Assembly: GCA_963758635.1 (NCBI GenBank)
Contig: CAVWWD010000004.1
Span: 192,001 to 256,000 of the forward strand
Reading direction: 5' to 3'
Origin: an uncultured Candidatus Rokubacteria bacterium
GTDB lineage: Bacteria; Methylomirabilota; Methylomirabilia; Rokubacteriales; CSP1-6
DNA: 64,000 nt
Positions 42,513-53,419 of this stretch are shown here, piece after piece. Both the position numbers and the translations under genes were made by a program. The notes beneath the pieces were generated by a model, which worked only from the letters and a program-made list of their open reading frames with translations, was not told the DNA's origin and made no database searches. Numbering within the stretch: position 1 is the first letter of the stretch; every line of letters begins with the position of its first letter.

Positions 42513-44216
42513 ATGCGGCTCGGAACCGGATCGCCGGCCGTACGCACCCGGCTCGTCACGGGCCTCATCCTCTTCACCTACGTCACGACCCACTACCTGA
42601 ACCACGCCCTCGGCCTCGTCTCGCTCGACACCATGGACGAGGGCCGGCTCTGGTTCCTCGCCCTCTGGCGCAATCCCGTCGGGACGGTGGCCCTCTACGG
42701 CGCGCTCCTCACCCACTTCTCGCTCGCCCTCTGGTCCATCTACCGTCGCCGCACGCTGGCCATGCCTCCATGGGAGGCCCTCCAGCTCCTGCTGGGGCTC
42801 TGCATCCCGCCGCTCCTCATCGGCCACATCGTGGGCAACCGGATCGCGCACGACGCCCTCGGCACCATCAACGTCTACACGCGGCTGGTGCTCATCCTGT
42901 GGGAGCTGCGCCCCGACCTGGGCTGGAAGCAGGCGGTGCTCTTGTGCCTGGCGTGGACCCACGGGTGCATGGGGCTCCACTTCTGGCTTCGCTTCCGCCC
43001 CTGGTACCCGCGCGCGGCGCCCGTTCTCCTGTCCCTGGCCGTGCTGCTGCCCGTGCTCGCGCTCCTCGGATTCGCCGAGGCCGGGCGCGAGGTGTCGGCG
43101 CTGGCCCGCCAGCCGGGCTGGGTCGCCTCGGTCATGCAGGCCGTGGACCACCCGGACGCCTCCGGGCAGGCGTGGCTCCGCGACGTCACCGACGCGTGCC
43201 TGGCCCTCTTCGCCGCGTGCGTGGCCGGCGCGCTCGTGGCGCGCGGCGCTCGGCGGCTGGCGCTCGGGCGTCGCGGGCGCGTGCGCGTCGCGTACCCGGG
43301 CCCGCGCGAGGTGACGGTGCCGGCGGGCTTCACCGTGCTCGAGGCGAGCCGGCACGCGGGCATCCCGCACGTGTCCGTGTGCGGCGGGCGGGGCCGCTGC
43401 TCGACCTGCCGCGTCCGCGTGGGCCGCGGCCGCGAGTGGCTGCCCGCGCCGAGCGCGGCGGAGCAGCGCGTTCTCGACCGCGTGGGCGCGCCGGCCGACG
43501 TGCGGCTTGCCTGCCAGCTCCGCCCGGTGCGCGCGGTGGCCGTGACGCCGATCCTGGCCGTGGCCCCCGCGCGCGTCCTCGCGCCCGACGCCAAGCCGCG
43601 CCGGGCCGGACAGGAAATCGAGATCGCCGTGCTCTTCGCCGATCTCCGCGGCTTCACGCGCATGGCCGAGCACCGGCTGCCCTACGACGTCGTGTTCTTC
43701 CTGAACCGGTACTTCGACGCCGTGGGCAGCGCGATCGACCATGCGGGCGGCGTGGCCAACCAGTTCACCGGCGACGGCGTGATGGCGCTGTTCGGCGTGG
43801 ACAGCGGCCCGGAGGCGGGAAGCCGGCAGGCGCTGATCGCCGCCGGCGCCATGGAGGACGCCCTGGCGGAGCTGTCGGCGCAGCTCTCGGCCGAGCTGCC
43901 CGAGCCCCTGCGCCTGGGTATCGGCATCCACACCGGCCCCACCGTGGTGGGCGACATGGGCTACGGCGAGGGCCTCTACCTCACCGCGGTGGGGGACACG
44001 GTGCACGTGGCCGCGCGGCTCGAGCAGCTCACCAAGCAGTACGAGTGCGAGCTGGTGATCTCCGAGGACGTGGCCCGCCGGGCCGGGCTGGACGCCTCGA
44101 GCTATCCCCGGCACGAGCTGACCCTCCGGAACCGGACCGCGCCGCTCGACGTGCGGATCATCGCCAGGGCGGGCGACGTGGCCGCGGTCATGCGCCGGCG
44201 CGAGGCCGCGGTGTGA
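42513..44216 (+). CDS. Membrane class III adenylate/guanylate cyclase with 2Fe-2S ferredoxin domain
   Basis: His-containing TM region, CGGRGRCSTC...RLACQ, LFADLRGFT, GDGVMALFG, GIGIHTG, GDTVHVAARLE. Confidence 0.93.
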   Translation: MRLGTGSPAVRTRLVTGLILFTYVTTHYLNHALGLVSLDTMDEGRLWFLALWRNPVGTVALYGALLTHFSLALWSIYRRRTLAMPPWEALQLLLGLCIPPLLIGHIVGNRIAHDALGTINVYTRLVLILWELRPDLGWKQAVLLCLAWTHGCMGLHFWLRFRPWYPRAAPVLLSLAVLLPVLALLGFAEAGREVSALARQPGWVASVMQAVDHPDASGQAWLRDVTDACLALFAACVAGALVARGARRLALGRRGRVRVAYPGPREVTVPAGFTVLEASRHAGIPHVSVCGGRGRCSTCRVRVGRGREWLPAPSAAEQRVLDRVGAPADVRLACQLRPVRAVAVTPILAVAPARVLAPDAKPRRAGQEIEIAVLFADLRGFTRMAEHRLPYDVVFFLNRYFDAVGSAIDHAGGVANQFTGDGVMALFGVDSGPEAGSRQALIAAGAMEDALAELSAQLSAELPEPLRLGIGIHTGPTVVGDMGYGEGLYLTAVGDTVHVAARLEQLTKQYECELVISEDVARRAGLDASSYPRHELTLRNRTAPLDVRIIARAGDVAAVMRRREAAV

Positions 44217-48532: not shown

Positions 48533-50157
48533 ATGCGCCGGCGCGGGGCCGGGCTCGTGGTGGACGCGCTGGCCTCGGCCGGCGTGCGCCACCTCTTCTC
48601 GCTCTCCGGCAACCAGATCCTGTCGGTCTACGACGCGAGCATCGGCAGCGGGATCGAGATCATCCACACGCGGCACGAGGCCGCGGCCGTGCACATGGCG
48701 GACGCGTGGGGCCGCCTCACCGAGGAGCCCGGCGTGGCCCTGGTGACCGCCGGCCCCGGCCACCTGAACGCGATCTCCGCGCTCTACGGGGCGCGCATGG
48801 CCGAGTCCCCGGTGGTCTTCCTGTCCGGCCACGCGCCGCTCGGCCTCGCCGGCCGCGGCGCCTTCCAGGAGATGGACCAGGTCGGCGCGGCCCGGCCCGT
48901 GACCAAGGCGGCGTGGGTCGCCCGGGACGCCGCGGCGATGGGCGACGACATCGCCCGCGCGCTCCACCTCGCGCAGAGCGGCCGGCCCGGGCCGGTGCAC
49001 GTGAGCCTGCCGTCCGATCTCCTCGAACGCGAGGTCGACGCGCCCGCCGCGGCTCCCGCGCGCGAGGCGGGGGCCGGCGAACCGCCCGCCGCGCTGGGCG
49101 CCGCGATCCGCGATGCGCTCGACCTGCTGTCCGCGGCCGAGCGCCCGCTCGTGCTCGTGGGGCCCGCGATGGGCCGCGGCCGCCGATGGCGGACGGTGGA
49201 GGCGCTCTCGGAGGCCACCGGGATTCCCGCCCTCCTGATGGAGAGCCCGCGCGGCGTGAACGACCCCTGGCTCCACCTCGCGTCCCGATCCCTCGCCGAA
49301 GCGGACGTCGTCCTGCTCCTCGGCAAGCGGATGGACTACTCGCTGCGCTTCGGTGAGCCGCCCGCGTTCGCGCGCGAGTGCCGCTTCATCCAGGTGGACG
49401 CCGACGCCGACGCGCTGGCCGCCCCCGAGCGGCTCGCGCTCGCCATCGCCGCCGAGCCCGAGCGGGCGGCGGTCGAGCTGGCCGCGGCCGCCCGTTCCCG
49501 GTCGTGGGCGCGCCGCGACTGGGGCGACCGGGTCATGGCGGCGCGCCGCGGCGAGCCGGCGGGCTGGGACGAGCTGCGGCGCTCCACGCGCCGGCCCATG
49601 CATCCGCTCCGCGTCTGTGCGGCCATGCAGCCGCTCTTCGACGACGGCGCCATCCTGGTATGCGACGGCGGCGAGTTCGGCCAGTGGGTGCAGGCCGGGG
49701 CCGAGGCGCGGACGCGGCTGATCAACGGGCTTTCCGGGTCCATCGGGAGCGCGCTGCCCATGGCGGCAGCGGCGCGGCTGGCCGCGCCGGACCGCGCCGT
49801 GGTGGCCGCGCTCGGCGACGGGACGTTCGGCTTCCACGCCCTCGAGCTGGACACCGCGGCCCGCTACCGCCTCCCCATCGTGGCGGTGGTGGGCAACGAC
49901 GCCCGCTGGAACGCCGAGCACCAGCTCCAGATCCAGCAGTACGGGGCGGAGCGCACGGTGGGCTGCGAGCTCTCGCCGACCCGCTACGACGAGCTGGCGC
50001 GTGCCCTCGGCGCCCACGGCGAGCACGTGGAGGCGGCCCGAGGATCTCGAGCCCGCGTTGGCGCGCGCGGTGAAGTCGGGGCTGCCCGGCGTGCGTCGAC
50101 GTGGCGATCGACGGCGTGGCCGCGCCGACCTACGGTACGGCTCGAGCCGGGCATTGA
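48533..50157 (+). CDS. Thiamine pyrophosphate-binding protein (acetolactate synthase-like), frameshifts near C-terminus
   Basis: [44 protein letters not shown]...VVGND TPP motif. Confidence 0.92.
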
Positions 50158-50549
50158 CCGGCCGCGACACCGCGACGCCCGCCGGGCCCCGGCCGGATCA
50201 GACCTGGCTCCTGTGGGACGGCGCCTGAGACCTCTGACGACGGTCCGTCGCTTGGGTCAAGCGACAAGACTCCGGTGATCGCGTCCACGCCGTGCCCTAC
50301 CAGGAGGCTCCGTGGCCGCCGATGACGGCCGAGCTCGAGCGGCAGTGCGCCCGCGCCGCCCACGTGATCACTCCCGACGGCCGGACGCTCCGCGCCGGAC
50401 GGGCCAGCCTCCACGTGATGGGCCTCGTGGGGTGGCGCCGCTTCGCCGCGGTCTTCTCGACGCCGCCCCTCGTCTGGCTGGTCGAAGCCGGGTACTGGAT
50501 CGTCGCGCGGAACCGGGGCTTCTTCGGCCGCTTCCTCTTCCGCCGATGA
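50154..50549 (+). CDS. DCC1/DUF393 thiol-disulfide oxidoreductase, predicted selenoprotein with UxxU motif
   Basis: TTG start overlaps the upstream stop; reads LLWDGA-TGA-DL-TGA-RRSVAWV...PYQ...GY.IVARNR; both TGAs (50226, 50235) fall on the family DGxCxxC cysteines. Confidence 0.85.
50241..50274 (+). promoter_or_regulatory. Bacterial SECIS-like stem-loop
   Basis: GTCGCTTG-GGT-CAAGCGAC (50247-50265) with lower pairing; apical-loop G lies 18 nt after the second TGA and 27 nt after the first. Confidence 0.75.
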
Positions 50550-50562
50550 GGTAGGGCTGATC

Positions 50563-51717
50563 GTGACCCAGGCCGATCAGCTGGCGCGATGGGTCGCGCT
50601 GGCGATGGCGGCGGGCTTCGCGCTCTCGCCCGGGCTGTGGGTCTCGACCCGCGCCTATCCGCTGGTGCCGGTGTCCGGCCGCTTGCCCCGCATCCCGTAT
50701 CCGGTCGACGTCGTCGCGTTCGGTGCGCTCTGGGCTCTCCTGGGCCTGATCGCGCTGGCGGGGGCCTTCGCGCCAGGCCTGCTCGCCTTCGTCGCGCTCG
50801 CCGGCGCGCTCAGCCTCTGGGATCAATCGCGATGGCAGCCGTGGTTCTACCAGTACGTGATCATGCTGGCGGCCCTCGGGCTCCACCCGTGGACCGGCGC
50901 GGCGCTCGACACGTGCCGGGCCATCGTGGCGGCCACCTACCTGTGGAGCGGCTTCCAGAAGGTCAACACCAGCTTCGCGCGCGTGACCTTTCCGTGGCTC
51001 GTCGCGCCGATGACCGAGCGGCTCCCGGTCGGGCTCGCGAGGACGGTCGCGTGGAGCGGGCCCGCGGTGGCGCTCGGGGAGGCGGCCATCGGCGTCGGAC
51101 TGCTCGTGGAGCCGCTCCGGGACGTGGCGGTGGTGGCGGCGGTGCTGATGCACGCGACCATTCTCTTGTGCCTGGGGCCGCTCGGCCACCGCGTCAACAC
51201 GGTCGTGTGGCCGTGGAACGTCGCAATGGCGGCGTTCGTCCTCGTCCTCTTCTGGCGGGCGCCGGACGTGTCGACCAGCCGGATCCTCTCCGTGGATCCC
51301 GGGGTGTTCCACGCGCTCGTGGTCCTGCTATTCGGCCTCCTGCCCGCGCTGAGCTTCGTGAACTGCTGGGACTCGTACCTGTCGGCCGCCCTCTACTCCG
51401 CGAATCTCAAGTCGGGCGTGATCTACCTGACCGAGGCGGGGCGGGCCGCGCTCCCGGTGGCCGTAGAGCGCTACGTGGAGCCCGGCGCGGACGGCCGGCT
51501 CGAGCTCTCGCTGTCGCGGTGGTCGTCGGGCGAGACCAACGTGCCCGTCTATCCGGAGGTGCGGGTCTTCAAGGCCCTCGCGCGGGAGGTTTGCCGGCAC
51601 GCGGGCGACGTCGAGCTGGTCGTGCGCTACCGCTCGCTCGCGCGCCTCGTCCGCCGGCGCTCGACGGCGGACCCCGGCGCGCGGGTGATCGTGCGCTACC
51701 GCTGCGGCTCGCTGTGA
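50563..51717 (+). CDS. Multi-pass membrane protein (HTTM/MauE-DoxX-like)
   Basis: About 9 TM helices; DQSRWQPWFYQY, YLWSGFQK, E..IG.GLL, MH..IL, VWPWN. Confidence 0.72.
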   Translation: MTQADQLARWVALAMAAGFALSPGLWVSTRAYPLVPVSGRLPRIPYPVDVVAFGALWALLGLIALAGAFAPGLLAFVALAGALSLWDQSRWQPWFYQYVIMLAALGLHPWTGAALDTCRAIVAATYLWSGFQKVNTSFARVTFPWLVAPMTERLPVGLARTVAWSGPAVALGEAAIGVGLLVEPLRDVAVVAAVLMHATILLCLGPLGHRVNTVVWPWNVAMAAFVLVLFWRAPDVSTSRILSVDPGVFHALVVLLFGLLPALSFVNCWDSYLSAALYSANLKSGVIYLTEAGRAALPVAVERYVEPGADGRLELSLSRWSSGETNVPVYPEVRVFKALAREVCRHAGDVELVVRYRSLARLVRRRSTADPGARVIVRYRCGSL

Positions 51718-51927: not shown

Positions 51928-52653
51928 TCAGGATCTCCGCCGGCGCACGAGGGCCAGCATGGCGACGCCGAGGCCGACCCATGCGAGCGATGCCGGCGCG
52001 GGGACCGACGCACGGACGCCGCCGGGGTGGCTCAGGCTGACGTGCAAGGTGTAGTCGAGTCCGACCTGGGTGCCGCCAGCGGAAAAGGAGGAGTCGCCGG
52101 GGGGGCAACCAACGAGAACCGAGCCACCGCTGAAGCCGTCCGGGCGCGTCAAGGTGATGCCAAACGCGCAAAAGGCGCTGGGGATGTTGGGGAACTGTGA
52201 CACCGCGATGGAGTAGGTGCCGGGTCCGGGCAGGGGGAATGGCCCGAGGAAGGAATCGAGCCCGCTGAAGGTTCCCGGATCCTGCGGGACGGAGTCGGCG
52301 TCGACGCCGATGCGGGTGCCGTTCGGCGTGAACAGCGAGAGCACCGTGTCGAAGCTGAACGGGAAGTTGTCGATGTCGAACAGCGCGGAGCCGCCGGTCG
52401 CGGTGAACGAGTAGAAGTCGACATCGGAGCCGCCGCCGGCGCCCGAGATCGTGGCCGTCGGGAATCCCGGCGGGGCGAAGACCGTCGCGGGCACCGGCGT
52501 CGTGAAGGCCGAGGACGGGATCGCCTGCGCGGTGGCGCGCGTGTTGTTGGTGGCCGTGCCATCGATCTCGAATTCGACGACCGGCGCGGCGAGGGCCGGG
52601 GTTCCCACGGCCACGGCCAGCGCGACGACGGCAAGTCCAGCGAGCGTTCGCAT
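51928..52653 (-). CDS. PEP-CTERM-type exported protein with pre-peptidase C-terminal-like (PPC) domain
   Basis: GGGAGG RBS, signal, DVDFYSF, DTVLSLF, PGTYSIAV, C-terminal VPAPAS + TM + RRRR. Confidence 0.8.
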   Translation of the reverse strand: MRTLAGLAVVALAVAVGTPALAAPVVEFEIDGTATNNTRATAQAIPSSAFTTPVPATVFAPPGFPTATISGAGGGSDVDFYSFTATGGSALFDIDNFPFSFDTVLSLFTPNGTRIGVDADSVPQDPGTFSGLDSFLGPFPLPGPGTYSIAVSQFPNIPSAFCAFGITLTRPDGFSGGSVLVGCPPGDSSFSAGGTQVGLDYTLHVSLSHPGGVRASVPAPASLAWVGLGVAMLALVRRRRS

Positions 52654-52759: not shown

Positions 52760-53419
52760 TCAGCGCGGCTGGGGCACGATCCGGATGTAGGGCTTCGGCG
52801 ACTTCCAGCCGCCCGGGTACTGCTTCTTCGCCTCCTCGTCCGACACCGCCGGGACGATGATCACGTCCTGGCCCTGCTTCCAGTTCACCGGCGTCGCCAC
52901 CTTGTGCTGCGCGGTCAGCTGGCAGGAGTCGAGCAGCCGCAGCACCTCGTCGAAGTTCCGCCCGGTGCTCATCGGGTACGTGAGCATGGCCTTGATCTTC
53001 TTGTCCGGCCCGATCACGAAGACCGAGCGGACCGTCGCGTTGTCCGCGGCGGTGCGGCCCTGCGCGGCGCCCGCCGTCTCCGCCGGGAGCATGTCGTAGG
53101 CCTTCGCCACCTTCATCTCCGGGTCGCCGACCAGGGGGTAGGTGAGCGCGTGCCCCTGGGTCTCCTCGATGTCCCTGGACCACCGCTCGTGATCGCTCAC
53201 CGAGTCCACGCTGAGGCCGAGGATCTTGCAGTTGCGCCGGTCGAACTCGGGCTTGAGACCGGCCATGTAGCCGAGCTCGGTCGTGCACACGGGCGTGAAG
53301 TTCTTCGGGTGGGAGAACAGGATCGCCCATCCGGTGCCGATCCACTGGTGGAAGTCGATCCGTCCCTGGGTCGTGTCCGCAGTGAAGTTGGGGGCCTCGC
53401 CGTTGATCCTGAGTGCCAT
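52760..53419 (-). CDS. Peroxiredoxin (Prx6/1-Cys family)
   Basis: FSHPKNFTPVCTTELG, TVRSVFVIGPDKKIK, YPMSTGRNFDEVLR, ATPVNW. Confidence 0.95.
   Translation of the reverse strand: MALRINGEAPNFTADTTQGRIDFHQWIGTGWAILFSHPKNFTPVCTTELGYMAGLKPEFDRRNCKILGLSVDSVSDHERWSRDIEETQGHALTYPLVGDPEMKVAKAYDMLPAETAGAAQGRTAADNATVRSVFVIGPDKKIKAMLTYPMSTGRNFDEVLRLLDSCQLTAQHKVATPVNWKQGQDVIIVPAVSDEEAKKQYPGGWKSPKPYIRIVPQPR

Follow-up and report, generated by a model that had tools for sequence, protein, structure and literature searches.

A DCC1-like protein gene with two in-frame UGA codons at its motif cysteines and one conserved SECIS-like hairpin

A small protein of the DCC1-like family (PF04134), encoded within a 64,000-nucleotide stretch of an uncultured Candidatus Rokubacteria genome (the window), is in our judgement very likely a thioredoxin-like selenoprotein with a UxxU motif that is decoded by one SECIS. 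The original prediction, made from the DNA letters alone, was of an oxidoreductase with selenocysteine (Sec) at both redox positions. That interpretation is supported by TGA codons retained in independent contigs, by sel genes in the genome, by TGA codons in homologues and by a conserved, covarying hairpin. The features are listed in Table 1.

Table 1. Positions of the gene, its motif and hairpin, its neighbours and the relatives with a displaced hairpin. Positions are those of the window unless a locus is named.
Feature	Position	Strand	Remarks
DCC1-like (PF04134) gene	50154..50549	+	131 aa with both internal TGAs as selenocysteine; putative TTG start
TGA, first Cys position of DxxCxxC (U25)	50226..50228	+	placed by alignment with relatives
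TGA, second Cys position (U28)	50235..50237	+	placed by alignment with relatives
SECIS-like hairpin	50247..50265	+	8-bp stem 50247-50254 / 50258-50265, loop GGT (GGU) 50255-50257, -10.1 kcal/mol
Third cysteine (C65)	50346..50348	+	conserved across subfamily
Stop of frame ending upstream TPP-enzyme gene	50155..50157	+	overlaps TTG start (TTGA); TPP domains matched
384-aa membrane-type protein	50563..51717	+	downstream; no Pfam or NCBIfam match
UxxC genes with upstream hairpin	L050:1537-1584, L062:945-992, L068:2489-2536	+	two lineages

The predicted reading frame proved correct: it runs from the TTG through both internal TGAs to a terminal TGA at 50547-50549. With the internal TGAs read through, the protein scores 53.3 bits against the PF04134 profile (cut-off 27.8), and still 33.1 bits with the stops left in; it is the sole PF04134 match in the source genome (G000). 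DUF393, a name used in the original prediction, is the older name of the same DCC1-like family. No match to PF00578 was found in the read-through protein, only PF04134 being matched at E up to 0.01, and no family of NCBIfam release 20.0 matched at E up to 0.1. The segment D22-G-A-U25-D-L-U28 aligns with the DxxCxxC motif of 34 Cys-only relatives and fits only if Sec stands for Cys. All ten near-identical database proteins are fragments of 75–85 aa that start after the motif, and IMG labels the fragments 'predicted DCC family thiol-disulfide oxidoreductase YuxK'. We conclude that the frame is a real gene, and that its product is very probably a DCC1-like protein with two Sec residues.

To place the gene among its relatives, we assembled 95 loci, comprising 15 genomic loci and the best 80 of 224 metagenomic stretches confirmed after searches with patterns that excluded the motif; 94 were parsed, the unparsed one (L076) being a UxxC gene. 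After duplicate removal, the 80 distinct relatives among the matches listed comprised 32 UxxU, 12 UxxC, 2 CxxU and 34 CxxC genes. The first motif position is TGA in 44 and Cys in 36 of these relatives, the second TGA in 34 and Cys in 46, so that homologues show the Cys/TGA pairing that had been put forward as a check. Among the listed loci, both positions are always Cys or TGA; the final parsing pattern demanded Cys or a stop there, while an unconstrained pattern agreed for 85 loci and the other ten agreed too. Frames run for 110–119 codons to their stop in 32/32 UxxU and 32/34 CxxC genes, with lengths alike in all classes, and Cys65 is kept in 77 of the 80 (32/32 UxxU, 12/12 UxxC, 2/2 CxxU, 31/34 CxxC). 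The relatives are kin, and such counts therefore overstate their independence; Fisher tests were set aside for this reason.

TGA-bearing genes occur in three phyla. A close orthologue is present in 11 of 251 genomes of the source phylum, always with TGA (seven with two, four with one). In the phylum of G252, five of six matches among 17 genomes carry TGA, all of them two, and in the phylum of G254, where 301 genomes gave 56 matches, eight of these contain TGA within the matched part. Viral contigs gave one weak 30-residue match only, and plasmids none. A tree of 92 rows and 116 columns, built with the motif masked and rooted by midpoint only, its bootstrap not settled, needs 18 motif-state changes. 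In the well-supported clade of the window gene, the earliest branch is a UxxU row and the UxxC and CxxC rows fall inside the clade, which suggests repeated Sec loss there, the order of events being unproved under the midpoint root.

The hairpin that follows the second TGA has its loop G at the 27th and 18th base after the two TGAs, as originally predicted, with 26 and 17 nt between TGA and loop. The bacterial SECIS model, as drawn in Figure 2 of PMC13188914, has a loop of 3–9 nt, a stem of 4–16 bp, a G in the first two loop positions, a spacing of 16–37 nt and a minimum free energy of at most -7.5. For both UGAs the window hairpin fits this consensus in every one of these respects (3 nt, 8 bp, G, 26/17 nt and -10.1 kcal/mol); it departs from the consensus in that it is apparently used from two registers and in that neither a conserved lower stem nor an Rfam SECIS-family match to the hairpin region was detected. 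Folding z-scores for four segments, from 0.11 to -1.88, are unremarkable. Hairpins of the same class follow 25 of 118,497 TGA triplets versus 13 of 34,888 TAG triplets in the genome, rare and not enriched after TGA, and one further TGA-N6-TGA pair among 2,530 in the genome has such a hairpin. The case for the element hence rests on conservation and covariation rather than on stability.

Among the matches listed, a hairpin of at least 7 bp with a loop G is found in 42 of 46 TGA-bearing genes (31/32 UxxU, 9/12 UxxC, 2/2 CxxU) versus 2 of 34 Cys-only genes. Stem positions pair in 96.3% of cells in the 46 TGA-bearing genes (41 distinct rows), versus 55.1%, the level of shuffled sequences, in the 34 Cys-only genes. 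Compensatory changes from U-A to C-G were observed at two stem pairs, each in 11 of the 41 distinct rows; in each pair, the change on one side alters the amino acid (Val/Ala, Lys/Arg) and the change on the other is synonymous. None of 500 shuffles reached the score and no slid register came close, in a test that took its structure from the window's own sequence, which favours that structure; RNAalifold independently recovers seven of the eight stem pairs. Furthermore, rare codons in the stem are retained, GCT (3.4% of Ala codons) in 21 of 32 and CGA (5.9% of Arg codons) in 17 of 32 UxxU genes. Two held-out sets were scored with the hairpin definition fixed beforehand. From the phylum of G252, all 4 additional UxxU genes carry the hairpin; from that of G254, it is present in 4/5 TGA-bearing and 0/20 Cys-only genes (25 of 30 loci parsed). 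Of the five unparsed loci of the latter phylum, all but L216 were read by eye: L204 (CxxU) has about 6 bp and three CxxC loci have no hairpin. One CxxU gene (L212; G330:C188:5745-6083) is a real exception, without the family hairpin; it may use another structure or represent a recent nonsense change. The hairpin of one UxxU gene (L126) contains a G-G mismatch. Judged from these alignments, the hairpin is under selection. Separately, two Cys-only genes nested among TGA-bearing ones (L073:2489-2536 and L120:622-669, both + strand) still have a hairpin of 8 bp where the SECIS would lie, possibly as a relic.

The motif variants bear on how one hairpin could act on two codons. The same hairpin is present in CxxU genes, which have only the near UGA, and in nine of the 12 UxxC genes, which have only the far one, and RNAalifold detected no other conserved helix over 48 columns starting at the first UGA. 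Given a hairpin that is kept in CxxU and most UxxC genes and the lack of a second helix, the simplest reading is that the element serves both UGAs, and on these comparisons one hairpin probably serves either. A second, upstream SECIS in UxxU genes was considered and rejected, as there is no conserved helix. In the three exceptional UxxC genes (L050, L062 and L068), the usual hairpin is broken and a 6-bp hairpin with a GGUC loop lies exactly 9 nt upstream. L050 occupies a different place in the tree from L062 and L068, and a grouping of all three was rejected (p-AU 0.009) in a test whose group was defined by the hairpin and which was run after the tree had been seen. In these genes the SECIS appears to have shifted 9 nt upstream once the second Sec had been lost. 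The occurrence of the upstream hairpin in three UxxC genes of two lineages suggests that the near spacing is favoured.

A preference of this kind could also mean that both residues are Sec but that the hairpin acts on the second UGA alone, decoding of the first being inefficient or dependent on another structure, separate or transient. The near spacing does hold for the second UGA alone, and the displaced hairpins of the three exceptional genes fit such an arrangement. Nine of 12 UxxC genes, however, have the far hairpin only together with intact frames, the region after the first UGA yielded no other conserved helix, and 26 nt lies inside the spacing range published in Figure 2 of PMC13188914. 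We regard a dedicated hairpin as improbable and favour one element that serves both codons.

Structure prediction addresses the role of the motif. An AlphaFold2 model built from 15 sequences (pLDDT 88.9) has a four-strand core with C-terminal helices, the core being a predicted beta-alpha-beta-alpha-beta-beta arrangement in which the motif starts the first helix after strand 1. Structure searches gave weak matches, to glutaredoxin, thioredoxin and GST N-domains; the best Foldseek E was 0.02, and the best VIA match had Z 5.8 (rmsd 2.7, 72 aligned). Foldseek gave no match at E up to 0.001, and a sequence search of the PDB returned no solved relative. A DxxCxxC motif near the N-terminus and a plant function of DCC1 are described in PMC7598583. 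The window protein is like DCC1-like oxidoreductases in its Pfam score above cut-off, the position of DxxCxxC, its length of about 130 aa and its predicted core; it differs in that both motif residues are UGA-encoded and a SECIS candidate lies in the coding region, and its subfamily is further marked by a conserved third Cys and by the segment P-Y-Q-x-A-P-x-P-P-M. From family and fold, the function is most likely that of a thiol-disulfide oxidoreductase with a diselenide/diselenol centre, in which Cys65 is a possible resolving or recycling residue.

The two Sec residues could instead bind metal or act as a sensor rather than form a catalytic dithiol/diselenide. Precedents exist, in that a bacterial UxxU is annotated as metal-binding in NF041115 (PMC13188914, Table 1) and UxxU residues are nickel ligands in hydrogenases (PMC13582414), and the third conserved Cys could complete a three-ligand site. 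Against this, the model places the motif where the first helix after strand 1 begins, a position like that of thioredoxin-fold active sites, and the one characterised member, Arabidopsis DCC1, is reported to reduce a protein partner (PMC7598583). A metal-binding or sensory role is accordingly unlikely in our view, and a redox-active diselenide/diselenol centre remains the preferred reading.

The source genome, 87% complete, contains all four genes of the Sec pathway whose presence had been put forward as a check: selA, selB and selC on contig C10 and selD on C3. Its single tRNA-Sec is canonical, with an 8-bp acceptor, a G discriminator and a UCA anticodon. In the assembly, one indel interrupts selA and another selD. 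The genes selC, selA and selB lie together at C10:234138-239096, where selC is separated from selA by two small genes unrelated to the pathway; selD (C3:51092-52010) has Cys in its N-terminal motif and an apparent N-terminal extension. SelB, recognised by its C-terminal domain, is present in 223 of 251 genomes of the phylum (a tally that includes four genomes flagged unpublished, on which nothing else here depends), among them all 11 with the TGA form. Co-occurrence of gene and machinery is hence necessary but not discriminating, and on gene content Sec use appears nearly universal in the phylum; a genome with a CxxC gene (G253) also has tRNA-Sec. Other redox genes of the source genome use TGA as well: eight of its 19 PF00578 (AhpC/TSA-type) matches, on C3, C4, C5 and C8, have TGA at a motif position, as does FdhA (C7:398472-400085) at its catalytic position. 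Most of these other TGA genes have a candidate hairpin, as located by a simple script, with its loop at a near (+20 to +25) or a far (+29) spacing, so that both kinds of spacing occur in the genome.

Hairpin-aided recoding might also insert Cys at one or both UGAs through tRNA-ReC (SelC*) or another UGA-reading Cys tRNA, giving a UxxC, CxxU or CxxC product or a mixture. Roughly 56% of the genomes that encode UxxU hydrogenases contain a tRNA-ReC, and the paper that reports this warns of such decoding (PMC13582414); the source genome, moreover, is incomplete. On the other side, searches of that 87%-complete genome with its own tRNA-Sec (nhmmer) and for SelB (tblastn) found no second selC and no second SelB. 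The top match is a UCA tRNA-Sec in five other UxxU genomes of the phylum (G018, G027, G028, G033 and G037) and also in G251, G252 and G244, and secondary matches are ordinary Ser/Leu tRNAs (18 loci, within the best 150 candidates per genome, some weaker ones being left out). On the loci and the 87%-complete genome so covered, we consider decoding as Cys highly unlikely and retain Sec at both positions.

Because the two TGAs carry the argument, we compared the region with contigs (not raw reads) from four of 24 listed runs, one of which could be the source sample. The X1 contig (50099-50359) has one difference and the X4 contig (49904-50569) has 11, all listed, and in each both TGAs and the hairpin are unchanged; the sequence check proposed for the TGA positions was thus passed at the level of independent contigs. 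An X2 contig also spans the TGAs and hairpin, with only two of its three differences accounted for. A contig from an RNA run (X17) covers 50293-50527 only, with the TGAs outside it, and transcription is not thereby shown. Relative to the window, the X4 contig is without one base at 50032 and one at 50091, and hence the frameshifts upstream of the gene look like assembly indel errors or strain differences. The extra bases at these positions split the 3' end of the TPP-enzyme gene and are probably assembly errors. A pseudogene or assembly error with two nonsense codons, to which indel errors nearby and in selA and selD of the same assembly and the truncated products of public gene callers might point, is refuted by the conservation data and has next to no likelihood, for both TGAs are retained in independent contigs, the same two TGAs recur at 49–67% protein identity in three phyla, and the relatives combine a conserved frame length with a covarying hairpin.

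The stop of the upstream TPP-enzyme frame, whose joining is supported by the single-base differences in the X4 contig, overlaps the putative start codon, which suggests translational coupling. The downstream 384-aa gene is probably co-transcribed; neighbours of its product in the ESM Atlas carry MauE (12–35% of members) or DoxX, and it lies beside a DCC homologue only in L089 and L116, so that it is not a conserved partner. Among the 47 of 80 loci that are 3 kb or longer, no neighbour is common to the UxxU genes, and no conserved neighbour points to a substrate. The largest neighbour cluster, from 30 loci, lacks a Pfam match; it probably consists of shadow frames on the strand opposite to the gene. 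Promoter and terminator scans found none. Elsewhere in the window are a membrane-anchored fusion of 2Fe-2S and adenylate/guanylate cyclase domains (42513-44216, + strand), a PEP-CTERM-like surface protein (51928-52653, - strand) and a 1-Cys peroxiredoxin (52760-53419, - strand).

Selenoprotein L (SelL) is an example of a diselenide protein, with two Sec three residues apart in a thioredoxin-like motif. The original prediction called UxxU motifs rare, and this proved too strong: Table 1 of PMC13188914 gives UxxU for three families, including the Prx-like UxxC/UxxU family (PF00578), a Prx-like UxxU family appears in PMC2398784, and PMC13582414 describes CxxU, UxxC and UxxU motifs in Group 4 [NiFeSe] hydrogenases, where the motif binds nickel. 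The window protein is like the Prx-like PF00578 family in the spacing of its two predicted Sec residues, which lie three positions apart in a motif of thioredoxin-like type; it belongs to another family, without a PF00578 match, and its diselenide is a prediction. As in the Group 4 hydrogenases, members with CxxC, CxxU, UxxC and UxxU are intermixed on the tree of its family. The hydrogenase motif is a nickel-binding one and tRNA-ReC is frequent there (PMC13582414), whereas the window family comprises small stand-alone redox proteins, no tRNA-ReC was found in the genomes searched, and some UxxC members have apparent natural 9-nt SECIS shifts. One SECIS for both UGAs has been proposed, not tested, for the UxxU hydrogenases (PMC13582414).

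DCC, DUF393 and PF04134 are absent from the text of the 2026 catalogue of 119 selenoprotein families (PMC13188914); DCC/DUF393 is likewise absent from the available text of PMC9312934, DCC-family terms from the main text of PMC12013277, and DCC from the available text of PMC2398784. We found no literature link between the DCC1/DUF393/YuxK family and Sec, although supplementary candidate lists could contain the family. Family, SECIS type and UxxU motif are thus each known, and the combination does not occur in the available text of the catalogues examined.

In the mechanism that we propose, both TGAs stand at the motif cysteines of a frame that is open to its conserved end, in a genome that supplies the Sec machinery. 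The one conserved coding-region hairpin would be the SelB-binding SECIS, serving the two UGAs in turn, from 26 nt and then from 17 nt. The protein would work as a thiol-disulfide oxidoreductase whose two selenols, placed where helix 1 begins, alternate between the reduced and the diselenide form, and Cys65 may take part in recycling. On a broader reading, to which we give slightly better than even chances, this is an uncatalogued multi-phylum selenoprotein family: a single SECIS in the coding region, together with canonical SelB, suffices for decoding two UGAs at a distance of three codons and so yields an intramolecular diselenide site, CxxC, CxxU, UxxC and UxxU form a natural allelic series, and the SECIS moved 9 nt upstream twice after the second Sec was lost, restoring the near spacing to the remaining UGA.

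If correct, these conclusions would add to the bacterial selenoproteome a family that gene callers truncate, and would provide a small two-Sec redox protein of 131 aa for studies of diselenide chemistry. They also open to direct test the proposal of PMC13582414 that two UGAs, here nine bases apart, can share one in-frame bacterial SECIS. For this single-SECIS question, the natural variants of the family, with either UGA alone or with the hairpin in either register, would supply the controls.
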